From: Anaerolineae bacterium
Lineage (GTDB): Bacteria > Chloroflexota > Anaerolineae > Epilineales > Epilineaceae
Length of the DNA: 33,469 nucleotides
NCBI GenBank assembly: GCA_029262755.1
Contig: JAJCYU010000205.1
Location: 1-33,469 of the forward strand
Reading direction: 5' to 3'
The notes beneath the pieces are model-generated. The model ran no database searches. It was given only the letters and a program-made list of their open reading frames with translations, and was not told the DNA's origin. The translations under genes and the position numbers were made by a program. Positions 2 to 26,346 of the stretch are shown in pieces (position 1 is the first letter of the stretch; every line of letters starts with the position of its first letter).

Positions 2-3000
2 GTGGTTCAGATCATCGAGAACACGGCCGAGGTACGGGCGACGACCTTCGACCCGTGCCTGGACAACAATACGGACACGGAGCCCCCGACGGTCAACCGC
101 CAGTCGGCGGTCACGTTCGTGAAGGTGGACGATCCGGACCCGGTGACCGCCGGTTCGGAGCTTCGCTACCGCGTGACCTTCGGCAACGACGGGCCGAGCA
201 CGGCGACCAACGTCTCCGTCACGGACCTGCTGCCCGCGGGCCTGAGCTTCGTGCGCTGCGAGCCGCAGACGCCGGGCAACCAGGTGACGTGTACGGCAGC
301 CGGACAGACCGTGACCCTGCGCGAGATCCAATCGGGTGGCCCCGTGGTGTGGAACGACACGCCGGGTACACCGCTGAACGACCTGGATCCGGGCGAGACC
401 TACACCTTTGACCTCATCGCCTTGGTCGATTCGGGCTACGTGCTCGACGGGCTGGGCGACACCGGTCCCGGTGAGGCCTGTGAGGGCCTGTTCGCGGCCA
501 CGGGCTACCCGCACTTCGCGCACAACAGCGTGACGATCACGGCGGCGACGTCGGCCGACACGCACGACGAGTGCACGCGGGTCAACGGCCTGGCCGACCT
601 GGAGATCACGAAGACCGACATCTTCGGGGATCCGATCCTGAACCCCGACAACTACTTCCTGCAATGCGACCCCGTCGAGCCGGGCGGGATGATCACCTAC
701 AACCTCACCGTGACGAACAACGGGCCCTCCGACGCGGCGCAGGTCGTGGTGATGGACTGGCTGCCCGAAATGTTCGTGGCGGTCGATCCGGCGCAGGTGA
801 TGGTTGAGATCGCCGGCGGCGCGGGCTTCGTCGAGGAGATCCGCGATACCGGCAAGATCACGCTGGTGATCGGCAACGATGACGGGTTGTTCGGACGGCT
901 GAACGTGGGCAACAGCGTGGTGGTGACGATCCGCGTGATGGTCCGCCAGGACGCGCTGTGCGGTGGAATCGCGGTCAACCAGGCGATGGTGACCACGCGC
1001 GCCCTGATGGGGCCGCCTCCGATCACGAGCCCGACGGCGGATCCGGACCTGACGAACAACCAGGATTCGGAAGAGACGACCATCGAGTGCCCGGCGGTGA
1101 CCATCAACAAGACCGTGTCCTACGACGGGCAGTGCCCCGGCGTGGACTTCACGACCACGAACCGCCTGAGCGCGGGCGCGACCTTCTGCTACGAGATCAC
1201 CAACAGCGGAACGACCTTCCTCGACGAGATCCGGATCACCGATACGCTGCGCTCGCGAAGCGAGATGTGGCCGACGGTGATCTTCACCGACGTGATTCGC
1301 TTCGCGACCGATCCGAAGATCCCGGTGCCGCCGGGCGCAACGCTGAACCGCACGTTCACGGTGCCGCCGCTGAACAAGGAATGCGGCAACGTGGTCAACG
1401 AGGTCTTCGTCACGGCCAACCCGGTCAACTCCGGCCGCACGGATCTACCGTGCCTGGAGCTGGTGGAGGCTGAGGATTCGGCGACGATCGAGGTTCCGTG
1501 CGCGGGTGTGGACTTCCGGCTGCAGCTGCCGGTGCTGGACACCGAAGAGTGCGAGACCTGGGTGCAGGTGCAGAACGTCGGCGACCGCGAGACGATGGCG
1601 ATGCTGGTGGTCTGGGGCGACTCGGGCTTCTGTCCGCCGCAGGCGGCGGGCCCGCTGAAGGCGGAGTGCTCGGGTCTACTGCGACCGGGTAGTGCATGGA
1701 GCTTCTTGGCCAACCAGATCCCAACGGGTTCGCGCAGTGGTGTGGTGTACTCGCTGGCCACGGACCGGGTGACAAGCCCGGGCGGCGGCCGTCTGCCCTT
1801 CGGGCGCATCGTGTGCGAGGAGTTCTTCTTCGGCGTGATCGGAGACGACTTCGCGTGGGCGGAGTTCGACAGCGCCTACCGTGAGCGCCTGACGTGGGAG
1901 GGGCTGGACTTCAGCACCTATCACGGCGAGCCGCTTGCGGTTACGGTCAACCGGGCGTGCCCGGATCCGGCCGATCCGAACCTGACGATCAACGCGGCCT
2001 ACACGGGCGTCTCCAGTGACATGGAGGGCGCGCGGGATCCGCGGGCCGGCGGCTTCGCGTTCTTCGCGCCGCTGGTGTTCGCGGGTGTCAACGATATGAA
2101 CTCCACAATCTGCATCCAGAACTCCGGCACCGAGTGCAGCTCGCTCGAGTTGTGGTTCAAGGGGCAGGACAACTGCATGCGCCCGACCTTGGCCGATGTG
2201 CTGAGCCTGGCGCCGGGCGAGTCGATCTGCTTCGACCCGAGCACGGTGGTCGGGCCGGATTGGTTGGGCTCGGCGTGGATTCGCGCCAGCCAGCCGATGG
2301 GCATCGTGGTGGACACGAAGGCGCCCAACCACTTTACGAGCTACAACGGCTTCGCGGCAGACATCCACGACTACGGCTTCACGGTCGGCAACATGATCAG
2401 CTACCTGCCGTTGATCTACTCGGAGTACCAGGGCTGGGACACGGCGATCCAGGTGCAGAACCTGAGCGCGGTGACGGCGGCCAAGGTGAAGGTCTACTTC
2501 CAGGACCGTGCGGGCGGCGTCATCACGACGCTCGTGGACTGGGTGTGCCCCTTCGGCTCGCAGACCTTCTTCCTGCCGGTGCTTTCGGCCTTGCCGGGCA
2601 ACTGGGTAGGCAGCGCGCGGGTCGAGAGCCAGGAATGGTGGTCGCCCGGTCAGCCGCTTGTAGAGCCGCCGCGCATCGCGGCGGTGGCGATGATGGAGAA
2701 GTGGGCGGACCCGGCGCGCACGATGCGGCGCGAGGCCGTGGCCTACAACGGCCAGCCGGAGTGCCTGCTGTTCGATTGGCAGATCGCAACGGGCACGAAG
2801 GGCGGTCTGACGTCGGGTTCGGCGGTCTTCGCTGTGCCGCTGGTGGCCAAGGGCAACCGCGGCATCACCAGCGAGATCGGGATCACGAACCTGGTGCCCA
2901 AGCCGGGCTTCACGGACTTCGCGATCTACTTCTACGACCAGAACGGCCTACTGGACTTCGTGTGCCAGAAGCTGTCCGAGAAGCAGGTCGAGTACCTGGA

Positions 3001-3277
3001 CCTCAACACCTGGGGCTTCATCCACAACGGCTACCTGGGCTCGATGGTGGTCTCGGCCGTCTTCTGGGAGCACCCGGTCTTTGACGACCGAGGCGTCTTC
3101 GAGCGCAACCTGGTTGGTCTGGGCGGCGTGGCCGTCGAGCGCGTCGGCGGCGTACAGGGCGCGGACGACGTGCCGGGCGATGAGTCGAAGGCCTTCGAGG
3201 CCTTCCCGATCTTCGATCACTTCACGCCGGAGGAAGAGCCCAACTGTCCGGGCGTGCCGCGCCAGCTGCGGCCGTAG
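2..3277 (+). CDS. 5'-truncated giant surface protein: DUF11-type repeats plus conserved four-repeat Cys-rich C-terminal block; paralog of 3621..10232
   Basis: Open frame from the window edge with strong G/C third positions. DUF11-like motifs YRVTFGNDGPSTATNVSVTDLLPAG and ADLEITK...YNLTVTNNGPSDA...DPDLTNN. Collinear similarity to the downstream gene from DPCLDNN to the C-terminal PNCPG. Confidence 0.85.
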   Translation: MVQIIENTAEVRATTFDPCLDNNTDTEPPTVNRQSAVTFVKVDDPDPVTAGSELRYRVTFGNDGPSTATNVSVTDLLPAGLSFVRCEPQTPGNQVTCTAAGQTVTLREIQSGGPVVWNDTPGTPLNDLDPGETYTFDLIALVDSGYVLDGLGDTGPGEACEGLFAATGYPHFAHNSVTITAATSADTHDECTRVNGLADLEITKTDIFGDPILNPDNYFLQCDPVEPGGMITYNLTVTNNGPSDAAQVVVMDWLPEMFVAVDPAQVMVEIAGGAGFVEEIRDTGKITLVIGNDDGLFGRLNVGNSVVVTIRVMVRQDALCGGIAVNQAMVTTRALMGPPPITSPTADPDLTNNQDSEETTIECPAVTINKTVSYDGQCPGVDFTTTNRLSAGATFCYEITNSGTTFLDEIRITDTLRSRSEMWPTVIFTDVIRFATDPKIPVPPGATLNRTFTVPPLNKECGNVVNEVFVTANPVNSGRTDLPCLELVEAEDSATIEVPCAGVDFRLQLPVLDTEECETWVQVQNVGDRETMAMLVVWGDSGFCPPQAAGPLKAECSGLLRPGSAWSFLANQIPTGSRSGVVYSLATDRVTSPGGGRLPFGRIVCEEFFFGVIGDDFAWAEFDSAYRERLTWEGLDFSTYHGEPLAVTVNRACPDPADPNLTINAAYTGVSSDMEGARDPRAGGFAFFAPLVFAGVNDMNSTICIQNSGTECSSLELWFKGQDNCMRPTLADVLSLAPGESICFDPSTVVGPDWLGSAWIRASQPMGIVVDTKAPNHFTSYNGFAADIHDYGFTVGNMISYLPLIYSEYQGWDTAIQVQNLSAVTAAKVKVYFQDRAGGVITTLVDWVCPFGSQTFFLPVLSALPGNWVGSARVESQEWWSPGQPLVEPPRIAAVAMMEKWADPARTMRREAVAYNGQPECLLFDWQIATGTKGGLTSGSAVFAVPLVAKGNRGITSEIGITNLVPKPGFTDFAIYFYDQNGLLDFVCQKLSEKQVEYLDLNTWGFIHNGYLGSMVVSAVFWEHPVFDDRGVFERNLVGLGGVAVERVGGVQGADDVPGDESKAFEAFPIFDHFTPEEEPNCPGVPRQLRP

Positions 3278-3370
3278 TCTGTACGTCCGCTTGATTCACT
3301 AGACCCCATCGCGGGGCCGGCTCACCTGGGGGGGAGAGCCGGACCCGATCGCGCACGAGCACGCGCGAGC

Positions 3371-3414
3371 AACGCACGCGGCCCCGGCGATTCGTCGCCG
3401 GGGCCGCGTGCGTT
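3371..3414 (+). terminator. Perfect 20-bp inverted repeat hairpin (terminator or mRNA stabiliser) between the two paralogs
   Basis: AACGCACGCGGCCCCGGCGA-TTCG-TCGCCGGGGCCGCGTGCGTT, followed by only a short T run. Confidence 0.7.
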
Positions 3415-3620
3415 TGCACCGGCGGCGTCGGAGCGCCGGTTACGCCTGGCAGGACGGGCCGTTTCCCTTCCTACGGAAAGGCAGACTCACAACCTCTTCA
3501 GGAATTCCTCACCGAACCCGTATCTTCGAGGGCCTCGGATTCGTTTCACACCATTGACGGAACCCGCCTGTCGCGGAATTCCCCTGCGTCGCGAATTATT
3601 CTCACTTGAGAGGATGCTCC

Positions 3621-6600
3621 ATGTTGAAGACACCCGGGCCACGCACTGACGGCGCCCCTCGATGGCTTATGTTTGCCCTAGCGGCGCTTCTGGCTGTAGT
3701 CGCGATTCCAGTGTTTGGATCCGGGACCGCGCATGCGCAGGATGTCGTCGTGGACTTCGAGGTCGATCCACCGATCTCCGCAATCGCGGGCGACACGCCG
3801 TTCTTTGGCTCCCTGACGACCTTCAGCTTCGATGTGGAGGTCTTCAACGACAGCGAAGACGATGCGGAGGACGTGGTTTTCGAGTTCTTCGTGCCGAAGC
3901 ACACCTTTGTGACCGCGATTACCTTTGGTGGCGATCCGCTGAATTGTCAGGCCGGCACACCGGGTGACTCTAACAACCCGGCGAACTGTCGCCTTGGGAC
4001 GCTGAACGAGGGCGACGACCCCATCATCGTCCACATTGAATTGAACGTGAACGCCGATACGCCCGAACTAACCTGGCTCGATATTGACGTCCAGGCTTGC
4101 TACGAGGACGACGACAGCGATGGCGCGCCCCAGACCAGCTGCGACGGCGACGAGTTCCCGTCTGACAACGAGGCGCACGCCTTCACGTTTGTCAGAACGG
4201 CGGCCGATCTGAACATCGTGAAGTCGCACACCCCGGCAGGCTCAACGCTCAACGCCGGCGAAGACATCGACTATGTGTCCACCGTCACCAACAGCGGTCC
4301 CAGCGTGGCGCGGGGTATGTTCTTCACGGATACGCTGCCCCCGGGCGTGATCTTTCAGGGAGTCGAGGTCTACGATCAGCACGGATCGCGTTTGCCGCTC
4401 GGCGGCGATTTGAACTGCGGCTTCCAGAGTACACAGGGTCCCTCCGGAACGGTGTGGTGCGAGTTGGGCGATCTGCCGCCCGGGCAGCCGATTCAGGCGC
4501 AGTTGCGCATCGTGATCTCGGCGCAGATTGCGCCCAGCGCGCCGGCCGGCTTCATCTGCAACACCTCAAGCGTCCGTTCGCTGCAAACCACAAATTTTAC
4601 GGCCGACACTGATTTCGCGCCCTTCGCGGGGGACCTCAGCAACCCGGACTGCGTTACCTTGAGGGATCGTGCGCAAGTCGTGATCCGCAAGAGTTCCTCG
4701 CCACTGCACCCTGTGGCGGGCGAAACATTCTTGTGGAGCTACGAGATCGAGAATCTGGGACCGACCGACGCGCGCGACGTGCTATTCACGGACACCTTGC
4801 CGCAGGGCCTGGCAGCCGACGGCAGCACCGTCTACTTCGACTACATCGATGACCAGGCACATGCCTTCTGCAGCGAGGTCTCCTCCTCGCCGTCGGTCAT
4901 CAATTGTCGACCTACGGGCAGTCCGTTTACCGCGCCACCCTACGTCCTTCCGGCAGGCGAGACGGTGACCTTCAGCGTTCTCGTGCGGATTCCCGCGGAG
5001 CTCGTGCCGGGAACGTACACGAATACGGGCAGCGTCGCGATCGACAACAGCACCTTCACGATCACCACCTTCAGCGACGATATCGAGGTGCGCAGCGTCG
5101 CGGACCTCAAGGTCCAGAAGTTCGTCAGCCCGCACAACCCCGTACGCGCCGGCGAGCAGTTCACCTACACGATCCTCGTGGACAACCTCGGTCCCTCCAC
5201 AGCCTACAACATCGTGGTGACGGACACCCTGATCAGCAGCGGCTTAGTGCGTGCCAATGGGTGCTCGCTCGCCATCCGTACGTCCGGCGGTTCCATCGAC
5301 GAGTTCAGCTGCAACTTCGCGCTGTCCACGGGAGTCTTCGACTTCGCTACGATGGGCGCCAACCATCTCAACCCGCGTTCTACCACGGACATGGGCCGAG
5401 CGATCATCACGATCAACGCAACGGCGGACCAGCCCATCGATCTGACCAACACGGTCACGGTGCGCAGCGATTCCTTCGACCCAGACCTAGCCAACAACAT
5501 GGCGATGGTTGCTCACAGCGTAAGCGCGGTGAGCGACATCGCCGTGACGAAGACGGCGATGGGCGAAATCGTGGATCCGGCCTGCGGTACGGCATGGATC
5601 TTCGACCCGAACGATCCGGGAGTTTTCCCTGCTCCCGGATTCGTGGCGTCGCCGACGAACGTGACGGCAGGACGGCGGATCAGCTACACGCTGACCGTGA
5701 CGAACAACGGTCCGAGTCACGCCGAAAACGTGGTGCTCAGCGACCGGCTGCCTGCGGGCGTGACCGTCGTGCCGGGCAGCCTGGTGGCATCGCAGGGCAG
5801 CTGCCAGACGGGCACGCCCGGCGATCCCGACGACCGGTTGACCTGCGGCATCGGGTATCTGCCTGCCGGCGATTCGGCCACGGTGACCTTCAATGTTGTG
5901 ACCGACAACGATCTGGCGCCCGCCATGGTGCTGGAGAACGACGTCTTCGCCTCGGCCGACCAATTCGATGACGACAACGCTAACAACTACGCCTTTACGC
6001 AGACGATCGTGAACACCTGGGCCGATACCGAGATCACGAAGATCTCCGTGGGCGACAACATCACGGGCTACGACGCGACGACGATGCGCCCGATCCACAC
6101 GGACGTGGCCGGCCAGGCGACGGCCGGCCTGGAGTTGCGCTACGAGCTGACGGTGCAGAATCGTGGGCCGAGCGTGGTGCGCAACGCGCAGGTGCTCGAT
6201 CTCCTGCCGGGGCAGCAGGACACAGGGCTCGACCATGATCCCGTGACCTTCCTTCGCGCAGACGGCGCCTATTGCCGGCCGGCCGACGAGCTGCAGGAGT
6301 TCGGCGTCTTCGGCGCCGGCGGCGGTAAGTTCGGCCAGGTGCTGTGGTGCAACCTGGGCGACCTGGCCCCCGGTGAGCGGGTGACCTTTGACATATACGT
6401 GAGCGTGGATCCCAGTGTGCCCGACGCGACAACCCTGACCAACGGGGCCTTCGTATGGTGGGGCGCATCGAGCCCACCGGCGCAGCCCGGAGGCTTCCTC
6501 GGCTTCCCCTTCCCGCAGATTCCGCCCTTCTCGCCGATCACGGATGATCCGTGTCTGGATAACAACTACTTCGAAACGGACACGCTCATCAACGCCGTGG

Positions 6601-9600
6601 CTGACGTCGGCGGTCCTATCCCGGGTCTCGGCGAGAGCAGCGTGCGCAAGATGGACGTCCCGGCGGAGGATCGGCTGGACCGGCCCTTCGAGCCGGACCT
6701 GGCGATTGCCGGTGACGAGCACCGTTACGAGATCACGATCGGCAACGCGGGTCCTTCGGACGCGCAGGGGCTGACCGTGATCGACACGCTGGACTTCAAG
6801 CAGGCCGGCATCGCGGGCGAGACCTTCCTGCGCTGCGAGCCGCTTGATCCGGATGACGAGGTGACGTGTATTCCGGGCCCGGGTCCGAACCAGATCACGG
6901 TGCAGGAGTTGATCGTCCAGAACGAGCCGATCATCACCGGCGGCGTCGGCGTATTGCCGTCGATGAGCTTCTTCCAGTTCTACCTGATCACCGAGGTCGA
7001 CTCAGGCTACGTGCTTGATGCGGACGACACCGGCACGGCCAACGGCCTGGTCGCGCAGAACCAGATCGATGCGACGGCGACCACGACAGACTTCAACCTG
7101 GCCAACAACACGGACCGCGAGATCACGGAGATCATCGCTGAGGCCGACCTGCGCGTGACGCTGGTCGACGACGCGGCGGGCTTCATGGCCTGCGATCCGG
7201 TCGAGCCGGGCGGTACGATCTTCTACGAAGCAACCGTGTATAACGACGGTCCCTCCGACGCGCGTGCGGTGATCCTCGAGATCCAGTTGCCCACCGGCGG
7301 TGTTGCGCTCGATCCCGATCAGGTGATGGTCGTGGCCGGCAACGGCGCGGTGATCGAAGTGCGCGACGATGGCCGGATCTTGGTCGCGGTCGGCAACGAT
7401 CCGAACAACGAGGGCGTCAACGAGCTGGCACGGCTGAACGCCGGCAACTTCGACACGATTCAGATCGAGGCGATGGTGACCGCGGACGCGGTCTGCGGCG
7501 AGGATATTGCCGCCACCGCGACCGTGCGTACGACGCGCAGCTACTTCGCGCCCTTGACCGGTGCGAGTGAGGTGCCGCCGGTAGTCACCGGTGCCGTGGG
7601 CCGCTCCTGGTTCTTCTTGGACGAGAGCAGCCTGGAGTTGCTCTACTTCATCGACGTCGCGAATATCGACAACATCGTGGCGGCCCATATCCACCGCGGC
7701 ATGGTGGGCATGAACGGCCCCGTGGTCTTCACGCTCTACGGCGGCGCGCCGCCGCCCTTCGGCCCGGGCAACCCCATCGGGGGCGTTGTTCAGCTCTCGG
7801 CGGGCGATGTGGCGGACCTGGACGCGCAGCGCTTCTACGTCAACGTCCACACCACGGACGTGCCCTCCGGCGAGATCCGCGGCCAGATCGCGCTCGACCC
7901 GGCGGCGCCGACGCCATACGCGCCCGGCATTGGGCTGGGCCCGCGGACACCGACCCTGGACCCGAACCCGTTGAACAACACGGATGCGGAGACGACGACG
8001 GTCGTGTGCCCGGCGATTGCGGTACGCAAGACGGTAAGCTTCGACGGGCAGTGCCCGGGCGTAGACCTTTCCACCGTTGTGAACCAGACGGGTCAGGCCG
8101 TGACGTATTGCTACGAGATTAGCAACACCGGCACGACCTTCCTCGACACGATCCTGCTGACGGACACGCTGACCACGCGCACCACGATGGCGACGGTGAT
8201 CTTCACCGACGTGATCACGGCGGGTCCGGTTGATCCGAAGCTGCCGCTTGGGCCGGGCGAGACGGTGCTCAGCCAGGTTACGGTTCCGCACGTGACAAAG
8301 GAATGCGGCACGGCGACGGACGTGGTCGATGTAACGGCGGTTGCTGTGAACTCCGGCCGCACGTTGATGCCGTGCATCAACGGCGCGACTGCGCAGGACA
8401 CGGCGCTCATCGAGATTCCGTGCGACGGAGTCGGCCACCGGCTGCAGTTGCCGGTCGTGGGCGGCGAGAATTGCGACACGTGGATTCAGGTACAGAACGT
8501 GGGCAACCGCGACACGAAGGCGATGCTCGTCTTCTGGGGCGAGCCGGGCGCGTGTCCGCCGCAGGCGGCGGGTCCGCTGAAGGTGGAGTGCTCGGGCCTG
8601 CTTGCGCCGGGAACGGCGTGGAGCTTCGCGGCGAACCAGATTCCGGCCGGCGCCAACAGCGGTATGGTGTACACGCTGCCGACGGACAAGGTCGTGGACT
8701 ACTTGGGTCAGCGGCTTTCCTTCGCGGACCTGGCCTGCATGCGCCTCTTCGACATGATCGTGGGCAGCCACGAGTGGTGGTACCGCTTCGACACGGCCTA
8801 CCGGGCGCAGGAGAAGTTCTACGGCCCCTTCGGCCCGAGCGGAGAGCAGCTGGTGCTGGACTTTGAGACCTACTTGGGTGAGCCGTTGGCCGCGACGGTG
8901 AACCGGGCATGCCCGGATCCCACCGATCCGAACGTAGTTGTGCACGCGGCCTATCGCGGTGTCTCGGCAGACGAAGAAGGTGCGCGTGATCCGGTCTACT
9001 CGGGCTACACGTACTACGCACCGTTGGTCTTCGCCGGACGTGGAGAGCTGAACTCGACGTTGTATATCCACAACTCGGGCGACGAGTGCACGAGCCTGGA
9101 ACTCTGGTTCTCGGCACAGGACAACTGCCTGCGCAGCATCTTGGGCGATGTACTGAGCCTGGCGCCGGGCGAGACGGTGACCTTCGATCCGAATACGGTG
9201 ATCGGTCCGGACTGGCTGGGCTCGGCGTGGATTCGCGCGTCGCAGCCGCTGGGCTTGATCGTGGATTCGATGGCGCCGAACCACTTCACGAGCTACGCGG
9301 GCGTGCCCGCGGATGTGTATGACCTCGGCTTCAGCCTGGGCAACCAGATCAACTTCGCACCGCTGATCTACAGCGAGTATCAGGGCTGGGACTCGGTGCT
9401 GCAGGTGCAGAACATGAGCGGCGTGAACGCGGCCAAGGTCAAGGTCTACTTCCTGGACCGCAGCGGTGACGTGATCACGACGTTGGTGGACTGGGTCTGC
9501 CCGCGCGGCAGCCAGACCTTCGTGCTACCGGTGATCGGCGCGCTGCCGGGCAACTGGGTAGGAAGCGCCCGAGCGGAGAGCCAGGAATGGTGGACGCCGG

Positions 9601-10232
9601 GCCAGCCGCTGGTAGACCCGCCGCGCATCCAGACGGTGGTCATGCTGGAGAAGTGGGCGGACCCGGCGCGCACGATGCGGCGCGAAGCGGTGGCCTACAA
9701 CGCGCAGGAAGAGTGCCTGCTCTACGACTGGCAGCTGGGGTCGGGCAAGGGCGGGACGAGCTCGGGCAGCGCCGTGTTCGCGGTGCCGCTGATGGCGAAG
9801 GGCAACCGCGGGATCACCACCGAGCTGGGCATCACGAACCTGGTGCCGAAGCCCGGCTTCACAGACTTCGTGGTGTACCTCTTCGACCAGAACGGGATGA
9901 TCGACTTCGTGTGCGAGAAGCTCAACGAGAAGCAGGTGGAGTACATCGACCTGAACTCGTGGGGCGCGATCCAGCCGGGCTACTTGGGCTCGGCGGTGGT
10001 GAGCGCGGTCTTCTGGGAGCACGATGTGTTCGACGCGCAGGGCGGCTTCGTGCGCAACCTGGTGGGCTTGGGCGGCGTGGCCGTCGAGCGCATCGGGGGC
10101 ACGCTGGGCACGGAGGACGTGCCGGGCGACGAGTCGAAGGCCTTCGAGGGCTTCCCGACCTTCGATCACTTCCTTGCACCGGTGGAGCCGAATTGCCCCG
10201 GCGTGAGCGGGCGCTTGCGACCCGGGAGCTAA
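3621..10232 (+). CDS. Giant secreted protein (~2200 aa): signal peptide, 8-9 DUF11-like Ig repeats, inserted CHRD domain, conserved four-repeat C-terminal block
   Basis: GAGAGGA RBS before ATG 3621. Signal peptide ends ...GTAHA/QD. Repeated ADL-x3-K...Y-x5-N-x-GP...TDxLP motifs. CHRD motifs (LTGASEVPPV, AAHIH, FYVNVHT, GEIRGQI) at ~7542-7889. Confidence 0.88.
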   Translation: MLKTPGPRTDGAPRWLMFALAALLAVVAIPVFGSGTAHAQDVVVDFEVDPPISAIAGDTPFFGSLTTFSFDVEVFNDSEDDAEDVVFEFFVPKHTFVTAITFGGDPLNCQAGTPGDSNNPANCRLGTLNEGDDPIIVHIELNVNADTPELTWLDIDVQACYEDDDSDGAPQTSCDGDEFPSDNEAHAFTFVRTAADLNIVKSHTPAGSTLNAGEDIDYVSTVTNSGPSVARGMFFTDTLPPGVIFQGVEVYDQHGSRLPLGGDLNCGFQSTQGPSGTVWCELGDLPPGQPIQAQLRIVISAQIAPSAPAGFICNTSSVRSLQTTNFTADTDFAPFAGDLSNPDCVTLRDRAQVVIRKSSSPLHPVAGETFLWSYEIENLGPTDARDVLFTDTLPQGLAADGSTVYFDYIDDQAHAFCSEVSSSPSVINCRPTGSPFTAPPYVLPAGETVTFSVLVRIPAELVPGTYTNTGSVAIDNSTFTITTFSDDIEVRSVADLKVQKFVSPHNPVRAGEQFTYTILVDNLGPSTAYNIVVTDTLISSGLVRANGCSLAIRTSGGSIDEFSCNFALSTGVFDFATMGANHLNPRSTTDMGRAIITINATADQPIDLTNTVTVRSDSFDPDLANNMAMVAHSVSAVSDIAVTKTAMGEIVDPACGTAWIFDPNDPGVFPAPGFVASPTNVTAGRRISYTLTVTNNGPSHAENVVLSDRLPAGVTVVPGSLVASQGSCQTGTPGDPDDRLTCGIGYLPAGDSATVTFNVVTDNDLAPAMVLENDVFASADQFDDDNANNYAFTQTIVNTWADTEITKISVGDNITGYDATTMRPIHTDVAGQATAGLELRYELTVQNRGPSVVRNAQVLDLLPGQQDTGLDHDPVTFLRADGAYCRPADELQEFGVFGAGGGKFGQVLWCNLGDLAPGERVTFDIYVSVDPSVPDATTLTNGAFVWWGASSPPAQPGGFLGFPFPQIPPFSPITDDPCLDNNYFETDTLINAVADVGGPIPGLGESSVRKMDVPAEDRLDRPFEPDLAIAGDEHRYEITIGNAGPSDAQGLTVIDTLDFKQAGIAGETFLRCEPLDPDDEVTCIPGPGPNQITVQELIVQNEPIITGGVGVLPSMSFFQFYLITEVDSGYVLDADDTGTANGLVAQNQIDATATTTDFNLANNTDREITEIIAEADLRVTLVDDAAGFMACDPVEPGGTIFYEATVYNDGPSDARAVILEIQLPTGGVALDPDQVMVVAGNGAVIEVRDDGRILVAVGNDPNNEGVNELARLNAGNFDTIQIEAMVTADAVCGEDIAATATVRTTRSYFAPLTGASEVPPVVTGAVGRSWFFLDESSLELLYFIDVANIDNIVAAHIHRGMVGMNGPVVFTLYGGAPPPFGPGNPIGGVVQLSAGDVADLDAQRFYVNVHTTDVPSGEIRGQIALDPAAPTPYAPGIGLGPRTPTLDPNPLNNTDAETTTVVCPAIAVRKTVSFDGQCPGVDLSTVVNQTGQAVTYCYEISNTGTTFLDTILLTDTLTTRTTMATVIFTDVITAGPVDPKLPLGPGETVLSQVTVPHVTKECGTATDVVDVTAVAVNSGRTLMPCINGATAQDTALIEIPCDGVGHRLQLPVVGGENCDTWIQVQNVGNRDTKAMLVFWGEPGACPPQAAGPLKVECSGLLAPGTAWSFAANQIPAGANSGMVYTLPTDKVVDYLGQRLSFADLACMRLFDMIVGSHEWWYRFDTAYRAQEKFYGPFGPSGEQLVLDFETYLGEPLAATVNRACPDPTDPNVVVHAAYRGVSADEEGARDPVYSGYTYYAPLVFAGRGELNSTLYIHNSGDECTSLELWFSAQDNCLRSILGDVLSLAPGETVTFDPNTVIGPDWLGSAWIRASQPLGLIVDSMAPNHFTSYAGVPADVYDLGFSLGNQINFAPLIYSEYQGWDSVLQVQNMSGVNAAKVKVYFLDRSGDVITTLVDWVCPRGSQTFVLPVIGALPGNWVGSARAESQEWWTPGQPLVDPPRIQTVVMLEKWADPARTMRREAVAYNAQEECLLYDWQLGSGKGGTSSGSAVFAVPLMAKGNRGITTELGITNLVPKPGFTDFVVYLFDQNGMIDFVCEKLNEKQVEYIDLNSWGAIQPGYLGSAVVSAVFWEHDVFDAQGGFVRNLVGLGGVAVERIGGTLGTEDVPGDESKAFEGFPTFDHFLAPVEPNCPGVSGRLRPGS

Positions 10233-10552: not shown

Positions 10553-10610
10553 CCAAACGTACTGCCAAACGGTTGTCGATCTGACTTCACCCCAAACGGT
10601 TGGTTGTCGA
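10553..10610. repeat. Short direct-repeat cluster (CCAAACG x3; CCAAACGGTTG x2; GGTTGTCGA x2)
   Basis: CCAAACG at 10553, 10565 and 10592; GGTTGTCGA at 10571 and 10602. Confidence 0.6.
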
Positions 10611-10669
10611 GCAGCCGTTCACGTTGATCGACGCGGTTCGTAGAGCCGACGCTCGCATGGAGACCGGCT

Positions 10670-10696
10670 CCCGCGGTGGCCCGTGGCCACCGCGGG
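10670..10696 (-). terminator. 12-bp perfect hairpin just downstream of the 10717..12198 gene
   Basis: CCCGCGGTGGCC-CGT-GGCCACCGCGGG, 20 bp past the stop codon; no clear U tract. Confidence 0.45.
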
Positions 10697-10716
10697 CTTC
10701 CTTCAACCGTTCGAAT

Positions 10717-12198: not shown

Positions 12199-12243
12199 GA
12201 AAATCCCTTCCTTCCGGCGTGCGGCAAGGGGTCGCCGCACTGA

Positions 12244-12270: not shown

Positions 12271-12279
12271 CGCTATACT
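12251..12279 (+). promoter_or_regulatory. Sigma70-type promoter of sufBCDU
   Basis: TTGTCC-17 bp-TATACT, ~120 bp upstream of sufB. Confidence 0.75.
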
Positions 12280-12397: not shown

Positions 12398-13846
<1,449 letters not shown>

Positions 13847-13924: not shown

Positions 13925-14697
<773 letters not shown>

Positions 14698-14701
<4 letters not shown>

Positions 14702-16098: not shown

Positions 16099-16114
16099 CG
16101 GCGGCTACGTTCCG

Positions 16115-16729: not shown

Positions 16730-16776
16730 GGGCGCCGCACACGATCCCGCTTGCCCCTATCCATCGACTCGCGCCT

Positions 16777-17925
16777 TCAGCGTTGCAGGATGAGCGTACC
16801 GAAGGTGCGGGGATCGGTCCACGATCGGGACGGGCTGCTCGAGATCATGGTCAGCTGCACGGGGGTAGGCAGGTCGTTGTCGCTGACGTTCAACGCCCAG
16901 CCGATCGCCTCGGTGCGAAGCGGATCCACCCCCAAGAGCGCCCACGGAATCGCGCACTCGATCGCGTAGCCGTTGTTATGAAGCAAGGCCGCTAGCCGGA
17001 TGCCGCCTGCGTCGCGGTCCGTGGGGCGCCACGTCCAGGCTTCGGGCTCGCGGCCCTCGAAATTGCCGGGCGATAGGCCGATCTGCCAGTCGTCCCCGTT
17101 ATAGGTGCCCATGTCCCAATCCGCTTCGAGGTCTGTGTCGAGCTGGAGTTCGAGGCTGTCGCCAAGGTACATCTTGCGTCCCGCGGCGCCGTCCGGCTGG
17201 CTGAATACGTTGTCGAACACGCGCACCGCTACGTATAGCGCGTTCTCGTCCCAGCCCGTCCATGCTCGGGCGGTGATGTCCAACGCGCCTTCGAAGTGCT
17301 CCGGTTCGCCGAAGACGACCGCGTCGAATGCGGTGTGGTCATGTAGCCACTCGTTGAGCCCTCCATCGATCTCCGGCGACGTTGCGAAGCGCGGTGCAGT
17401 CCAGACGGGATTGCCCGGCCTGGTGCGGGCGGAGGGCGTCGGCGTGGGTGTAGGGACGCGTGTGGCCGTTGAAATCGTCTGTCCGGCCGCAGCAGAAGTT
17501 GGGATTGTCGGCTCGGAACCACCCGTGCCACCGGAGTCCGAGGCGCCCTGCAGCGCCAGCGACGTCGCCTGCGCAGCCGCGCCGGCCATGGCGCCCCCGC
17601 CCGTACCGGTGCTGGTGCCTTCCGACGGCGTCGCCTTCGGTTCGCCCGGCGTAGGCGCGGTCAGGGAGACAGCGGCACGGCCCTCGGAGGCTGGGGACGG
17701 CGCGAGGGCGACCTCGCTCGCGCGCCGGTCAAGAAATCGGGTAGCGAGCAACCCGGTCACGGTCAGCGCGAAAAGCGCGAGCGTGGCTGCACCCATCCGG
17801 CGCACCGCGGGGGAGCGGCCTCCCGAAACGCTGTCGGCTACGTTCAGGTCCGTCTGCGGCGAGCCGCATTCGGCGCAGTACCAGCTTGCGCCCTGGTTGC
17901 GATGACCGCACTTTGCGCAGATCAC
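16777..17925 (-). CDS. Membrane-anchored protein: zinc ribbon, single TM helix, Ser/Thr/Pro linker, CBM9-like sugar-binding domain
   Basis: N-terminal CAKCG...CAECG; hydrophobic ATLALFALTVTGLL; PEIDGGLNEW...WDENALYVAVRVFD...GDSLEL...GYAIECAIPW is typical of CBM9-like domains. Confidence 0.8.
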   Translation of the reverse strand: MICAKCGHRNQGASWYCAECGSPQTDLNVADSVSGGRSPAVRRMGAATLALFALTVTGLLATRFLDRRASEVALAPSPASEGRAAVSLTAPTPGEPKATPSEGTSTGTGGGAMAGAAAQATSLALQGASDSGGTGGSEPTIPTSAAAGQTISTATRVPTPTPTPSARTRPGNPVWTAPRFATSPEIDGGLNEWLHDHTAFDAVVFGEPEHFEGALDITARAWTGWDENALYVAVRVFDNVFSQPDGAAGRKMYLGDSLELQLDTDLEADWDMGTYNGDDWQIGLSPGNFEGREPEAWTWRPTDRDAGGIRLAALLHNNGYAIECAIPWALLGVDPLRTEAIGWALNVSDNDLPTPVQLTMISSSPSRSWTDPRTFGTLILQR

Positions 17926-18094
17926 GGCCGGCCACTCATGCGGAAGCGTAGGTGGCCACCGCAGCGTCCGACGACCCGTCGACCTGTGTGGCGAGGCACC
18001 ACGATCCGCCGGCGGACGACGCTCCCACTGACGATAGGGAACATACCTTCAAATGACGCCTCGGAAACTAGTTGCTCTGCGCCCCGACCAAGCC

Positions 18095-19570
18095 TCATCC
18101 CGTCATCCGGCGTGGATCGAGGAGGCGATCGAGCTCCTCCTCCGATAGGTCGGTCAGCTCGCGGGCCACATCTTTCACGCGGCGGCCCTCCGCGTAGGCG
18201 CGCTTCGCGATGACAGCGGCCTTGTCGTAGCCGATCACGGGATTGAGCGCCGTGACCAGAATCGGGTTGCGCTCTACGAGCTCCGCGATACGTTCGTGAT
18301 TGACGGTCATTTCCCGTACGGCCATGTCGGCCAGCACACGCGCGGCGCCGGCGAGGAGCCCGATCGACTCCAGGAGGTTGCGTGCGATCACGGGCAACAT
18401 CACGGACAACTGGAAGTTGGCGGCCTGGCCCGCGACGGTGATCGTCGTGTGATTGCCCATGACCTGGGCCGCGACCATGGCTGTCGCCTCGGGAATCACG
18501 GGGTTGATCTTGCCGGGCATGATCGACGAGCCGGGCTGCAGCGCGGGCAACGTGATCTCGGCAAGGCCGGCGTTAGGCCCCGAGTTCATCCAGCGCAGAT
18601 CGTTGCTGATCTTCATCAACGACGTGGCCGCCGCGTTCAGGGCGCCCGAGACCGCAACGACCGTGTCGTTGGAAGCCTGGGCGACGAAATGGTCGGGCGC
18701 TTCGGTGAAGGGATAGCCGGTGAGTGCAGCCAGGCGCGCCGCCACGGCCTTGCCGAAACCCTGGGGCGTGTTGATGCCCGTGCCCACCGCCGTGCCGCCG
18801 ATGGCGAGGGCCGCCAATTCCGGCACGAGATCTTCGATGCGAGCCCGGCCGCGACGAACCTGGTTGGCCCAAGCGCCCATCTCTTGGCCGAGCGTGACGG
18901 GCATCGCGTCCATCAGGTGGGTGCGGCCCGTCTTGACCACATCCGCATGCTCTTGCGCGCGTTGGGCGATGGTGTCCGCCAAGTGATCGAGGGCCGGCAG
19001 CAAGTCCTCCGTGAGCGCCAAGGTGGCTGCGACATGAATGGCCGTGGGAATCACGTCGTTGGACGACTGGCCCATGTTCACGTGGTCGTTGGGATGCACC
19101 GGCGCTTTGCTGCCCAGCGGTGCGCCGAGGGCCTCGTTCGCGGCGTTCGCGATTACCTCATTGGCGTTCATGTTGGAAGACGTGCCGCTGCCCGTTTGAA
19201 AGACGTCGATCGGGAAGTGGGCGTCGTAGCTGCCGTCGGCCACCGCGCGCGCCGCATCTTCGATCGCAGCACCTACCGCGTCGTCGAGTTGGTCGAGATC
19301 GCGGTTGACGCCCGCTGCGGCCAGCTTGACGAGACCGAGCGCGCGCAGGAAGCGACGGCCGAAGCCGGTGTCGGAGCCCGCGGCATGGGCGTAGCGGCTG
19401 CCGAAGCACAAGCCGCTGATCGGAAAATTGTCGACGGCGCGTTGGGTCTGGGCTCCATAATACGCGTCCGCGGGAACGCGGACTTCACCGAGCGAATCCC
19501 GCTCTGCGCGGGTGGGCGAAGCGGACGTGTCGGCCGCGGCTAGGTCGAAAGCGGGCGGGCGGTCGTTCAT
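18095..19570 (-). CDS. fumC: Class II fumarate hydratase
   Basis: GAGAGG RBS before ATG 19570. Motifs [57 protein letters not shown]. Confidence 0.95.
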
Positions 19571-19637
19571 GGCGCGATACCTCTCGCGGGCGCGATTGAT
19601 GCGCGAAGTGGTGGGCGGTCGCGGTGCGTCCCGAGCA

Positions 19638-20939
19638 TTAAGCGTTGAGGCCGAACATTGCTTGCGCATGCTTGACGCCCTCGACCAAGTCGTCGATGTC
19701 TTCCAGCGTATTGTAGACGGCGAAGCTCGCGCGCGTGGAAGCAGCGACACCCAAATGATCATGCAGCGGCATCGTGCAGTGATGCCCGGCACGCACCGCG
19801 ATGCCGCGCGCGTCTAGGATCGTCGCGAGGTCGTGGGCGTGTAGGCCATCAACCGTGAAGGAAACCACGCCTTCGCGCGCAGCGTCGGCCGCGGGTCCGA
19901 GCAGCCGCAGACCGGGCAGCGCGTCGAGACGTCGCGCAGCGTCCCCGGCTAGCAGACGATGGTGCGTGGCGATGCGATCCATGCCGAGCCCTTGCATGTA
20001 GTCGACGGCAGCAGCAAGTCCCACGGCCTGTGCGATGGGCGGCGTCCCGGCTTCAAACCGGTACGGTGCGTCGTTCCAGGTGGAACCCTCCATCGTGACA
20101 CGGCGGATCATCTCGCCGCCGCCCTGCCACGGGGGCATCGCTTCCAAGAGCTCGTGGCGCGCCCATAACACGCCGATGCCCGTCGGTCCGAGCATCTTGT
20201 GTCCGCTGAATGCGAGGAAATCGACATCGAGTCCCCGGACGTCGACCGGGCCATGCGGCACGCTCTGCGCAGCGTCCAGAAGGACCTTTGCACCCACCGC
20301 ATGGGCGGCGGCGACCACCTCGGCTACCGGATTCGTCACACCAAGCGTATTGGATACGTGGGCCATCGTCACAAAGCGCACGCGATCGTCCAGCACCGTC
20401 GGCAATGCGTCGAGATCGAGGGTGCCGTCGGGTAGCAGCGGTATGGCGCGCAGCTCCGATCCCGTGCGCCGCGACAGCAACTGCCAGGGCACGAGGTTGC
20501 TGTGATGCTCCATCGGCGTGACCAGGATCACATCCCCCGGTCCGAGCTGATCTTGCCCCCAACTGCCGGCCACCAGGTTGATGGCGGCCGTCGTCCCGCT
20601 GGTGAACACGACCTCGCGCCGGTCGTCCGTGCCCAAGAACGCGGCGACACGTGTTCGGGCACGCTCGTAGAGGTCGGTCGCCTCGGCGGCAAGACGATGA
20701 ACCCCGCGGTGGACGTTGGCGTGGGAGTGGGTCTCGTAGCGTCGCATCGCATCGAGGACCGCGTTCGGCCGCTGGCTGCTCGCAGCGCTGTCGAGGTAGA
20801 CCAACCTCTGCCCGTTCTGCTCATGCGCCAAGATCGGAAAATCGGCCCGGACGACCGCGCCATCCAGTGGCTCCGTCAAGACGGGCGATCCGGGATCGGC
20901 CACGGGCGGTGGGTTCAAATCGAGGGTGCTTGGGTTCAC
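19638..20939 (-). CDS. sufS: Cysteine desulfurase SufS
   Basis: [40 protein letters not shown] (PLP Lys), RAGHHC (group II catalytic Cys); GGGAG RBS before GTG. Confidence 0.95.
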
Positions 20940-23226: not shown

Positions 23227-26200
23227 ATGCCCGTCCATCCCCCCCGAATCCACGCGGCCCCTACCGAGCGCCGCCTCGATGCCTTGGTGATGCGCACGGT
23301 GACCCTAGCCTTCGTCGCGCTCATCGGTGCCGCGTCGCTCCTGTCGCTCGTGCCCGCACCGTCCACCACGGGCGCGGCATCCCCGGCTCTCGCTCCGTTG
23401 GCCCAAGGCGCCGGCTCGCCTTGGGTGAAGGCGGTGGACGGTCTGCCGGGCGACAACGTCGGCGATATCGCCTTTGTCGGCGATCCGAATCGTAACTTTC
23501 GCTACTACATGATGGAATCGATCGAGTTCGGCCTGCATCGATCCCTGATCTCGCTCGAGGGTTGGCGACGGATGGCGCCCAACCCGGCCGCGCCCCAAAC
23601 CACCCGCGTCCGATCGGTTGCCGTCGCGCGTGATGACATCGACGGCCTGCGCGTGTACGCCGGCCTACAGGCGCGTCCGCTCTTCGGGATCAGCGAGGAT
23701 GCCGGCGCATCGTGGCGTTCCGAGATCGGACCACCGGGTGTCAGCCGTGCCGACCTGCTCGACGTCACGACGGACGGCACGATCTGGCTCGCGCAAAACG
23801 CGGCCACGGATCTTTGGCATTCGGAGGACCGCGGCCAGAACTGGGCGATCGACGCCAATCCGACGGCGCGCAGGGATCCCATCGACGACCTGTTCGCATC
23901 GCCCGACGAAGCCCGCATCTGGATGGTCGCGGGCGGCAGGATCTGGCGCAGCGAGGACAGTCCGGGAGCGTGGCAGGATGTCCTCGGCCCGCTGATCGCA
24001 GCACCGATCACGATGACCTTGACGGTCGAGTTCGCGTCCATCGACAAGGACGGTCGGTTGTGGGCCGTAGGGAAACGTCTGGGGCAGCCTGCCGCTCAGG
24101 TGAGCCTCGACGACGGCACGACCTGGATGCCCGCAGCGTGGCCGGCCGACACGCTTGGGGCGAAGGCCACCGCCCTACACGCGGGGCGCGCCGGATTCGG
24201 CATCCCCGCGGCCTGGTTGGCCGTGGACGACGGCTTCGACGGAGCGCGGGTCTTCGAGACGCGCAACGACGGTGCATCGTGGTCGGAGGTCTTCCGCGCG
24301 CCGATCGCGGTATCGGTGATCGCCGTCGATCCGGTCATGTACGATGTCTTCGTTGGCACCGATGGCTTGGGACTGTACCGATTGGACCAACCTCCCGTGC
24401 ATACCGGAGCGGTCTCGGCCGAGATGCTCGCGGTTGCGGCGCCGACCTATGGCCAGGACGATACGGTTCTGGCTTTGGGCCAGGTGACCCCGCTGCTCGG
24501 CACGCAGCCGGGCACGACGCCCGCGTGGAAGCTCGTGTACCGTTCTCGCGACGGCGGTGAGAGTTGGGCACGCCGCTACGTAACCACAGGGCTCGGCACG
24601 CGGCTCGATCCCTCGCCCGCCTTTGCAAGCGACCGCAGACTGTACAGCGGGCGTTTCCTGTCGACCGACTCAGGGCAGCGCTGGCGCTTGCTCGCGCCCA
24701 GGCCCGGTGGCGGTGATGTTCCGTACGTACAGGCCGTGGGGCCGATCACCGGCTCTCGGCCGTCGCTCTATGCGCTCGATGTGCCCTTCGTGGCGGGGGG
24801 AAGCGGCACGGGCGCCGGATTGCAGTTCAGCGGGGACGGTGGCGCATCGTGGCAGAGCACGGACGCCACGGTCGACGGCATCACCGCGATCGCGATCTCG
24901 CCCGGATTCGCGGACGACGCCACGGCATTCTTCGTCACGGACCGCGGCAAGGTGTTTCGAACACAGGATGCCACCAGCTTCGAGGAGATCGGTCGTTTGC
25001 CGCTCCTAGCAGGGCAAGGCGCCGTACCCGGACTGGCCGTCTCGCCTTCGTTCGACCGCGACGGCACCTTGGCGGCCGCGGTCGACAATCGGGCGGCCGT
25101 CCAGCGGTCCACGATCTACGTCTCCAACAACGGTGGCCGCACGTGGGATGAGCGCGCCGCGGGGCTCGCGCCGCGTGGTCGCCCGAGCGCGTTGATCCTA
25201 TCGCCCCGCTTCGAATTCGACCGCATCATGTTCCTAGGAACCGGTCGCGAGCGCGGCGATGTCTTGGAGCCGGCAATCTACGCCTCCGATTCGGCCGGCG
25301 CCGAGTGGTTCGGCGAAGCGCTGCTCGGCGAGGGAGCCGTGCAGGCCTTCGCATGGGGCGGCCTCGCGGACGACGGCCGCTTGTTCGCCGCGACAGGCCG
25401 AGAGGGCCTGTACTACCGCGACACGGACGGCGGACCGATCGTGCCCGTGCTGCCCACCGTGACCGCCTCGCCCACGCCGGCGCCGGCCACCGCGACCCCG
25501 ACCCGCACCGCCTCGCCCGTAGTAACGGCCTTCCCGAGCCCAACGCCGACGCCCGAGCTACAGACCCTGTGCGTGGAGGCTGTTGCCGATACCCACGCAC
25601 AGGAGACCCGGCCGGGAATCAGCGCGGGCCTGGAGAACGAGCTGCTCATTTGGGACGACGATATCGAGACGGCGCACACCTATCTGCGCTTCGAGCCCCC
25701 ACTGTTGCCGGTGGGATCGCAGACCGTGACCGCGACGATCGAAGTGTGGCTGCGTGCGCAGCAGAACGAAGGCGCGGCACCGTCCGCCGAGATGCGCAGC
25801 GTCGCAGAGCCGTGGACCGAGTCACGCATGACGTGGAACAACAAGCCGCGCTTGGGCAACTCGATCGCCACCTCGGTCGTCGATAGCCGACCGGCATGGC
25901 AGGTGTGGAACATCGGTCCTCTGGCCGCGACATGGGCCGGCGATCCGTCGCGCAATCACGGTGTCGCGCTCCTGCCGGTCACGGGTGCTTCGGACGCGAT
26001 GCGCGTCAAGCTCGCTTCGCGCGAGAACTCATCGGACCCCGCTCCGCGACTCTGCCTTCGCTACCGAGCGCCGCGCGTTGAGCCCACGGCCACGGAAACC
26101 CCGGAGCCCTCGCAGACGCCCAGCCCCACCGCGTTGCCTACCGACGGCCCTTCGCCCACCCCGAGTGAAACGCCCGAGCCGAGCAGTACCCCATTGCCCA

Positions 26201-26346
26201 CGCCTACGGATGCGGCGACGAGCACGAGCACGAGCACGCCGTCGCCCACGGCGACGCCTGTCCCGACCGCAACCCCGACGCTCACTGCGACGCCGGATCA
26301 TGGCGATGGATTCGTGTTCATCCCCTTCGTGGTGAAGGGCCGCTAG
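23227..26346 (+). CDS. Secreted Asp-box (BNR/VPS10-like) beta-propeller protein with DNRLRE-type domain, Pro/Thr linkers and C-terminal FIPFVVKGR tail
   Basis: About nine S-x-D-x-G-x-x-W boxes and SPxFxxD repeats. ADTH...YLRF...WTESRMTWNNKP...NHGVAL...SREN...PRL is the DNRLRE-type pattern. GGAG before ATG 23227; ATG 23290 is an alternative start. Confidence 0.8.
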   Translation: MPVHPPRIHAAPTERRLDALVMRTVTLAFVALIGAASLLSLVPAPSTTGAASPALAPLAQGAGSPWVKAVDGLPGDNVGDIAFVGDPNRNFRYYMMESIEFGLHRSLISLEGWRRMAPNPAAPQTTRVRSVAVARDDIDGLRVYAGLQARPLFGISEDAGASWRSEIGPPGVSRADLLDVTTDGTIWLAQNAATDLWHSEDRGQNWAIDANPTARRDPIDDLFASPDEARIWMVAGGRIWRSEDSPGAWQDVLGPLIAAPITMTLTVEFASIDKDGRLWAVGKRLGQPAAQVSLDDGTTWMPAAWPADTLGAKATALHAGRAGFGIPAAWLAVDDGFDGARVFETRNDGASWSEVFRAPIAVSVIAVDPVMYDVFVGTDGLGLYRLDQPPVHTGAVSAEMLAVAAPTYGQDDTVLALGQVTPLLGTQPGTTPAWKLVYRSRDGGESWARRYVTTGLGTRLDPSPAFASDRRLYSGRFLSTDSGQRWRLLAPRPGGGDVPYVQAVGPITGSRPSLYALDVPFVAGGSGTGAGLQFSGDGGASWQSTDATVDGITAIAISPGFADDATAFFVTDRGKVFRTQDATSFEEIGRLPLLAGQGAVPGLAVSPSFDRDGTLAAAVDNRAAVQRSTIYVSNNGGRTWDERAAGLAPRGRPSALILSPRFEFDRIMFLGTGRERGDVLEPAIYASDSAGAEWFGEALLGEGAVQAFAWGGLADDGRLFAATGREGLYYRDTDGGPIVPVLPTVTASPTPAPATATPTRTASPVVTAFPSPTPTPELQTLCVEAVADTHAQETRPGISAGLENELLIWDDDIETAHTYLRFEPPLLPVGSQTVTATIEVWLRAQQNEGAAPSAEMRSVAEPWTESRMTWNNKPRLGNSIATSVVDSRPAWQVWNIGPLAATWAGDPSRNHGVALLPVTGASDAMRVKLASRENSSDPAPRLCLRYRAPRVEPTATETPEPSQTPSPTALPTDGPSPTPSETPEPSSTPLPTPTDAATSTSTSTPSPTATPVPTATPTLTATPDHGDGFVFIPFVVKGR

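Follow-up and report, generated by a model that had tools for sequence, protein, structure and literature searches.

A short terminal motif of secreted Chloroflexota proteins and the four-repeat end module of giant DUF11 proteins

We analyzed a 33,469-nucleotide stretch of DNA (the window), which is contig C205 of a draft Anaerolineae genome (G000; 5.06 Mb in 428 contigs, 84% complete, 65% G+C). It encodes two giant DUF11-repeat proteins, P0001 and P0002, both ending in a block of four repeats, and a secreted protein, P0003, ending in the short peptide FVFIPFVVKGR (the tail). Each repeat opens with a hydrophobic-proline-hydrophobic segment (LP segment), and a preliminary description of the window had proposed that the tail is a donated beta-strand that docks into the block. 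The results reported here characterize the tail as a strong short motif shared by secreted proteins of Chloroflexota, apparently undescribed as judged from our literature and NCBIfam searches, and leave its docking into the block of the giant proteins unsupported. The features concerned are the following.

2 to 3277, plus strand: P0001, giant surface protein with DUF11/TIGR01451 repeats; the 5' part is missing at the contig edge and 1091 amino acids (aa) are present
1508 to 3274, plus strand: C-terminal block of P0001 (residues 503-1091), four homologous beta-sandwich repeats with the LP strand first in each
1508-2041, 2042-2386, 2387-2815 and 2816-3226, plus strand: repeats R1, R2, R3 and R4 of the P0001 block
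1517-1537, 2060-2080, 2399-2419 and 2828-2854, plus strand: LP segments RLQLPVL, FFAPLVF, SYLPLIY and FAVPLVAKG of P0001
3606 to 10232, plus strand: P0002, giant secreted DUF11 protein (2208-aa frame) with Pfam DUF11 and CHRD matches
8430 to 10229, plus strand: four-repeat block at the C-terminus of P0002, sharing 70% identity with that of P0001
8439-8459, 9012-9032, 9351-9371 and 9777-9803, plus strand: LP strands of P0002
23227 to 26346, plus strand: P0003, secreted BNR/sortilin-like protein with a CBM96/DNRLRE domain at 25573-26058, assigned from Pfam, NCBIfam and an N-terminal hydrophobic segment
26074 to 26310, plus strand: Pro/Thr-rich linker of P0003, read from the sequence
26311 to 26343, plus strand: tail FVFIPFVVKGR of P0003, a copy of the genome-wide motif (tail-matrix score 13.9)

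P0001 and P0002 lie in tandem and scored above the curated cut-offs of the DUF11 and TIGR01451 families. P0002 matched PF01345 (DUF11) in 6 stretches with 242.6 bits (E 7e-73) and TIGR01451 with 172 bits, while P0001 gave 99 bits in 2 stretches and 85 bits respectively. A CHRD domain (Pfam, E 2e-30) is embedded among the DUF11 repeats of P0002 at 7545-7889, and this protein probably begins at 3621 (MLKTPGP), ahead of a signal peptide. The start of P0003 at 23227 agrees with that of the database protein P0154, and P0003 contains two Pro/Thr linkers, one of them leading into the tail as the preliminary description had stated. Reading of the translations also bore out that P0001, P0002 and P0003 carry neither a C-terminal transmembrane (TM) helix nor an LPxTG signal. 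The database relatives of the window proteins come from Chloroflexota metagenome-assembled genomes labelled Ardenticatenales, Caldilineae, Anaerolineae and Candidatus Epilinea.

The abundance of the tail was evaluated in the 4232 stop-to-stop open reading frames (ORFs) of at least 300 aa of the genome. Curation returned 85 C-terminal tails, a minimum for this genome, with the consensus [ILV][YFW]LP[LWIFMV][AVTS]x[RK], preceded by a basic position and followed by 0-8 residues after [RK]. The strict pattern [YFW][LVMAIF]P[LIVFMAW][LIVFMATS] occurred in 88 copies 4-8 residues before the stop and at 0.9 copies per position elsewhere, and the C-terminal enrichment of the motif was about 20-fold. 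At least 130 copies were found when C-terminal, N-terminal and vWA-preceding sites were counted together. A stretch rich in Pro, Thr, Ser or Ala precedes the tail in 42 of the 85 proteins, and a signal-peptide-like hydrophobic segment, called by a crude hydrophobicity cut, occurred in 49 of the 75 tail ORFs that are not cut by a contig edge.

The carriers of the tail are diverse. Of the 74 tail proteins with a length of 400 aa or more, every third was taken to give a sample of 20 for scanning against Pfam; nine showed families comprising subtilase S8, beta-lactamase, PPC, Laminin_G_3, Big_6, Big_9, LVIVD, PD40 and DUF11 with dockerin, and eleven showed none. The DUF11 protein with dockerin is 1951 aa long and ends in the tail; therefore one giant DUF11 protein has the tail in place of the block. 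Each of the six homologues of P0003 found in the database, whose identity ranges between 66% and 26%, terminates in a tail, and the two most distant ones have kept it in the absence of the Pro/Thr linker. Four DUF5719-like proteins (P0194, P0199, P0207 and P0214) end in AFLT[VIF]GR, which resembles the tail and has no proline; these endings hint that proline may not be absolutely required. The tail was not described in the literature searched, one search being swamped by chemical names.

A DNA pattern for the motif was then applied to 301 Chloroflexota genomes, among them four unpublished ones (G173, G272, G038 and G227), all negative. In the genome under study the pattern returned 26 matches, against none in a reversed codon-order control and 6 in a built-in control; when the stop codon was made part of the pattern, no more than 3 tails were recovered, and this version was abandoned. 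Fourteen of the 301 genomes, from five families (f1, f4, f10, f18 and f55), were tail-rich, defined as 14 or more matches and no less than 3 times the control, and 19 of 30 translated matches from five tail-rich genomes were true C-terminal tails. The motif is common in several Chloroflexota families, in line with the earlier remark that such tails are common on secreted proteins of this phylum. The same data bear on the trivial explanation that the tails, and their likeness to the block strands, are compositional accidents of a G+C-rich genome. Stop-to-stop ORFs do include false frames, and some tails on short ORFs are probably spurious; however, the positional enrichment, the empty reversed control, the retention of tails in homologues from other assemblies and the true tails in five other genomes refute chance as the source of the tails, leaving this explanation with a practically negligible probability.

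The motif is not restricted to the C-terminus. All proline sites of the ORFs, with the last 15 residues excluded, were scored with a matrix derived from the 85 tails, and 119 internal sites reached the cut-off of 8. Thirty-six of them have a Pro/Thr linker on one side and a terminal vWA domain on the other, in the order motif, x-x-Cys, DxSxSM; at eleven sites a Pro/Thr linker follows the motif, mostly a few residues past the signal peptide; four are true first strands of sandwich repeats, and the others are near-terminal tails with longer extensions, N-terminal copies, membrane segments or spurious frames. The 36 vWA-ended proteins are scattered over contigs C60, C76, C105, C112, C176, C185, C193, C266, C284, C291, C306, C334 and others (loci L108-L120). 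In their alignment the conserved Cys after the motif pairs with a C-terminal 'PC', and an upstream 'FPVPxVxV' segment is common to many of them. An AlphaFold2 (AF2) model of linker, motif and vWA domain, built with 13 paralogues, had an overall predicted local distance difference test (pLDDT) score of 86.9, with a confident vWA domain and a motif at about 58 showing no secondary structure. The motif is unstructured beside the folded domain in this model and is therefore taken as a free linear element in a flexible linker; the vWA domain, considered as an acceptor of the motif in cis, was ruled out on the same ground.

The L-P core of the tail recalls known sorting signals, and these were examined in the same genome. 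Two sortase genes scored above the Pfam cut-off and a third fragment was present, with sortase genes located on contigs C9 and C281; five classical substrates were found, with LPSTG, LPATG or LPKTG followed by a TM helix and a basic end (four on contig C376, the fifth on C393). The tail resembles the LPXTG signal in being a short C-terminal motif with an L-P core, borne by many secreted enzymes and adhesins per genome and often placed after a Pro/Thr stalk. It differs in ending 0-8 residues after its basic residue, with neither a TM segment nor a charged membrane tail, and in occurring also at N-terminal and internal sites. On these sequence features the tail is not the sortase signal. The PEP-CTERM, PGF-CTERM and GlyGly-CTERM signals of exosortase, archaeosortase and rhombosortase do not describe it either, as it has no TM segment and no matching NCBIfam model: the NCBIfam sorting-signal models returned no match to five tail segments (E <= 10) or to P0003 (E <= 0.01).

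A related explanation is that the motif is the recognition site of an extracytoplasmic protease, transpeptidase or glycan/lipid transferase and serves covalent sorting or maturation. A short, exposed and strongly conserved linear motif in flexible linkers would suit such an enzyme, the 0-8 residues that follow the basic one are variable and look dispensable, and known sorting signals are also short. On the other hand, there is no TM segment to keep the substrate at the membrane, copies located just past the signal-peptide cleavage site would make transpeptidation pointless there, no candidate enzyme was found in the genome and its sortases have their own classical substrates. We consider an enzyme site unlikely, while giving it some real weight.

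Non-covalent attachment has its own precedents. SLH, LysM and WxL are non-covalent wall-binding modules. MYXO-CTERM, the tag of myxosortase, is reported to be a lineage-wide sorting tag of surface proteins (PMC11980579). The tail resembles all of these as a lineage-wide tag that would hold dozens of secreted proteins on the cell surface; SLH, LysM and WxL are folded domains of 40-160 aa and MYXO-CTERM is a tripartite signal with a TM segment, whereas the tail is a peptide of eight residues.

As regards the block, the motifs listed in the preliminary description were all found in the translations: each repeat has an LP strand, then x[IV]x[VI][QT]N, and closes with AAYTG, TSYNG, VAYNG or KAFEA. 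A fifth LP-like segment, EAFPIFDHF, lies at 3197-3223 in P0001 and had not been listed. Self-BLASTP of the block detected no repeats and profile methods were needed. Comparison by hhalign of sub-alignments of 40 family members confirmed the homology of the repeats, with probabilities of 96.9% for R2-R3, 94.6% for both R2-R4 and R3-R4, 80% for R1-R2, 56% for R1-R3 and 23% for R1-R4; repeat 1 contains a long insertion. The block of P0001 had no Pfam or NCBIfam match, with none at E <= 0.1 for Pfam.

The structure prediction called for in the preliminary description gave a confident AF2 model of the block (40-row alignment; pLDDT 88.5, predicted TM-score 0.91), consisting of four beta-sandwich domains packed as one body. 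The LP segments are indeed the strands opening each repeat (E11-14, E189-201, E304-309 and E447-457 in block numbering) and run directly into the x-V-x-V-Q-N strand. A Foldseek search of the whole block against the PDB returned only single-domain matches with low TM-scores. VIA-align over 48,161 chains superposed repeat 2 on TM1070 (1nc7_A) with a Z score of 12.0 and a root-mean-square deviation of 1.9 over 100 of 116 residues at 15% identity, and on the Anabaena sensory rhodopsin transducer (ASRT; 2ii7_A) with a Z score of 8.2 at 13% identity. Repeat 2 thus has a TM1070/ASRT-like fold, to which R3 and R4 are linked by their hhalign homology with R2, and R1 more weakly. The block differs from these proteins in being four fused copies in a secreted protein, with a clear match for repeat 2 only. 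Because repeat 2 superposes on TM1070, the LP strand is the ordinary first strand of a complete known fold.

These results bear directly on the proposal that the tail is a donor beta-strand docking into the four-repeat block, the giants being 'passenger + tail + acceptor' fusions. Donor-strand complementation is known from chaperone-usher pili, TasA fibres and archaeal threads. The window recalls these systems in having a terminal hydrophobic, strand-forming peptide beside Ig-like and beta-sandwich domains, and the first strands of a related family, described below, resemble the tail; the LP segments are true opening strands, four proteins of the genome (on contigs C375, C404, C157 and C80) carry the block, then a linker, then the tail, and 24 of the 150 best representatives of the block family end in the tail. 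The differences are that no chaperone or usher is present and that an incomplete acceptor fold was looked for and not found. All four repeats have their own first strand, repeat 2 covering a complete solved fold, so that the LP strands are homologous first strands of four complete sandwiches and the fusion model does not hold. No evidently strand-deficient homologue was seen among the 45 repeat-bearing ORFs of the genome or in the family of about 490 aa described below, and no open acceptor was found.

The gap-free match between the tail and repeat 4, which the preliminary description had pointed out, proved to be at chance level. Tails scored with the matrix derived from them have a median of 14.7 and a 5th percentile of 7.7, while the eight block strands ranged between -13.0 and +3.1. 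For repeat 4 the scores were -6.3 (VFAVPLVAK, P0001) and -13.0 (VFAVPLMAK, P0002), and 4% and 18% of all proline sites, respectively, do as well or better. Co-folding of the final 40 residues of P0003 with the block (40-row alignment), from which the first LP strand had been removed so that residues 18-596 remained, gave scores of 0.25 and 0.30 against a mark of 0.32, with no control pairs, and speaks neither for nor against docking.

The distribution across genomes that the preliminary description had suggested profiling gave a divided answer. The wider repeat family was present in all 14 tail-rich genomes, in line with the proposal, while the full four-repeat block occurred in only two of them (G000 and G290). 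Seven (G015, G011, G024, G108, G207, G295 and G198; 92-100% complete) had no match to the block profile at E <= 1e-5, and real tails were verified in four of these seven (G015, G108, G207 and G295). This distribution excludes the block as a general partner of the tail.

Nor does gene neighbourhood connect P0003 with the giants. About 13 kb separate them, occupied by Suf Fe-S assembly genes, a fumarase, a class-V aminotransferase and a CBM9 protein, and because these genes intervene the span 1508-26346 is not a single gene cluster. At a density of about 121 motif genes per 5.06 Mb, the chance that a given gene has one no farther than 16 kb away is about 53%. Taken with the fold and the scores, these data make donor-strand docking into the block very improbable. 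The remaining annotated features of the window are as follows.

12398-16729 and 18095-20939: ordinary housekeeping genes, namely SufB/SufD, SufC-like ABC ATPase and NifU-like genes, and fumarase and class-V aminotransferase genes (minus strand)
16777-17925, minus strand: CBM9-domain protein, without the tail
32358-33440, minus strand: DUF6391 protein, without the tail

The block itself is not confined to the window. By phmmer it was found in 27 paralogous ORFs of the genome, and it ends eight giant or edge-cut ORFs of up to 11,555 aa. Giant fibre-like proteins thus form an entire family in this genome. The 11,555-aa ORF lies on contig C209, and ORFs of 4880 and 4834 aa on C108 and C44 also end in the four-repeat block. 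Five ORFs (C403, C259, C275, C193 and C187) continue for about 165-190 residues beyond the block; the extension resembles the proprotein-convertase P-domain (PF01483), which was matched by 2 of 40 related proteins. A search of 1.8 billion representatives with the block returned 985 clusters at E <= 0.001, including some proteins with three tandem blocks and many consisting of a signal peptide and the block only. An ESM Atlas search returned only 'hypothetical protein' clusters plus one DUF5719 cluster.

Hidden Markov models of the single repeats matched the 45 ORFs mentioned above, 18 of them outside the block paralogues, and revealed secreted four-repeat proteins of about 490 aa. The block aligned with this family by hhalign with a probability of 99.5% (E 8.5e-23) over repeats 2-4, the LP strands being in register. 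Members of the family partly reach the DUF5719 (PF18986) model: a paralogue on contig C212 scored 27.5 bits against a cut-off of 26.2, several database relatives matched, and one of 40 block-family members matched at 1.4e-5. On this evidence the block is probably a divergent member of the DUF5719-like secreted family, the link being by profile-profile comparison only. It differs from DUF5719 in its large repeat-1 insertion and in its fusion to giant DUF11 fibres. The name DUF5719 was not found in the literature searched.

The gene neighbours of the family in 10 genomes comprise GT4, GT2, methyltransferase, nucleotidyltransferase, Wzx-like flippase, phosphodiesterase and LuxR-Kelch genes. The last of these (F4, 330-471 aa) encode a LuxR-type helix-turn-helix domain fused to Kelch repeats and lie near the DUF5719-like gene in five of the 10 genomes (loci L142, L146-L148 and L150 in G295, G076, G242, G108 and G279), on the opposite strand in four of the five. 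Contig C212 of the present genome (L141) carries four DUF5719-like paralogues (3-845, 883-2631, 2934-4472 and 18019-19608), two Kelch proteins (10576-11985 and 12169-13812), a NAGPA phosphodiester glycosidase and, at 13988-17959 on the minus strand, a 1324-aa Wzy_C (O-antigen-ligase-like) protein. This neighbourhood and the fold lead us to predict that the family acts together with an envelope glycan layer and, through its kinship with the family, that the block does so too.

The family also offers a different partner for the tail, which might dock by strand addition or exchange onto the mostly single-copy protein of about 490 aa, perhaps a glycosylated S-layer or sheath subunit, with the giants joining the layer through their block. 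The protein was found in 14 of 14 tail-rich genomes versus 56 of 287 others, and four genomes that lack the family but show a mildly raised pattern count yielded 29 matches, none of them a real tail. The association is nested: all the tail-rich genomes examined belong to the family-positive set. The repeat-3 first strands of three C212 paralogues scored 8.6-11.6 with the tail matrix, inside the tail range, and the gene lies in glycan clusters, where S-layer glycoprotein genes are often located. Against such docking, no strand-deficient domain was found, and the domain-1 segment of the family aligns in register with the LP strand of repeat 3 and so represents its own strand. Many family-positive genomes (e.g., G095, G104, G140, G171 and those of genus g53 in family f34) have no tail excess, and the 14 genomes come from only five families, so that kinship may explain much; the co-occurrence may be taken as a lead and not as proof. 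A strand-less first domain was suggested by a C212 paralogue that lacks an LP strand after the signal peptide and has an extra C-terminal LP segment; it was ruled out, as most of the 60 members viewed (of 75 of 440-560 aa) have a hydrophobic segment there and end right after the last repeat. Docking onto the protein of about 490 aa is accordingly rated improbable. Slightly less probable still is the full form of this idea, a Chloroflexota surface-display system in which a TM-less peptide of eight residues at either protein end would add as a beta-strand to a DUF5719-like outer-layer protein, the giant DUF11 fibres joining through a fused paralogue.

The reading we favour, with a confidence that we put at about even, is that the tail is a new short motif for envelope tethering or sorting and that the block is a head or anchor module associated with the glycan layer, both functions being predicted. 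The span holds two separate things, the giant fibre proteins and the tail of P0003. The giants would be secreted and fibre-like, a signal peptide that is cleaved off leading into a series of DUF11 Ig-like domains, joined by CHRD in P0002. Their compact end module of about 590 aa consists of four complete TM1070/ASRT-like sandwiches, the LP segment being the first strand of each, and would bind or assemble with the glycan layer of the cell as an anchor or a distal head. The tail is a linear motif of eight residues (basic-hydrophobic-[YFW]-L-P-hydrophobic-small-x-[RK]). It is set in flexible linkers rich in Pro and Thr, either at the C-terminus, at the N-terminus of the mature protein or before the terminal vWA domain of secreted enzymes and adhesins. 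A conserved envelope component would hold these proteins through non-covalent docking of the tail as a strand-forming peptide, with the Pro/Thr linker as the stalk. The sequence data show the motif itself, where it lies, its conservation and spread and its independence from sortase, whereas its tethering function and docking mode are inferred from them; a tethering or sorting tag is most likely.

Several points weigh against this reading. No partner of the motif was identified in this analysis, and the sequence data agree equally with a site of cleavage or modification. The presence of the DUF5719-like family in all the tail-rich genomes means that a link between tail and repeat family may exist. 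The predicted glycan role of the block draws on the neighbourhood of a distant paralogue and on a fold common to many non-lectin sandwiches. The signal-peptide count comes from a crude hydrophobicity test on stop-to-stop ORFs, some of them spurious at 65% G+C. The tail-rich threshold was set after seeing the table, and the DNA pattern reads only CTN leucine codons, so that low-G+C genomes are under-counted.

In general build the giant proteins resemble GhlA of Litorilinea aerophila (Caldilineae), a protein of 6,596 aa with 49 DUF11 domains which forms polar grappling-hook-like filaments (PMC13319060). Both are giant strings of DUF11 Ig-like domains from related Chloroflexota classes, the comparison being one of DUF11 make-up only. 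An N-terminal hydrophobic anchor is described for GhlA (PMC13319060), while P0002 has a cleavable-looking signal peptide.

Soils, sediments and wastewater sludge are rich in Chloroflexota, and little is understood of the envelope of these bacteria. That more than 100 secreted proteins per genome share one tag, with proteases, esterases, lectin-like proteins and giant adhesins among them, points to a route of sorting or tethering that is still missing from the picture of a major phylum. The definition of the motif makes the surface proteome predictable from sequence and provides a handle for the search for a receptor or enzyme and, possibly, a small display tag. The DUF5719-like proteins gain a first context in envelope-glycan clusters, and the giant DUF11 fibres are seen to end either in a DUF5719-like paralogue or in the tail. 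If display by strand addition were true, one short tag would show more than 100 enzymes and adhesins per cell without a sortase, a membrane anchor or a lipid.

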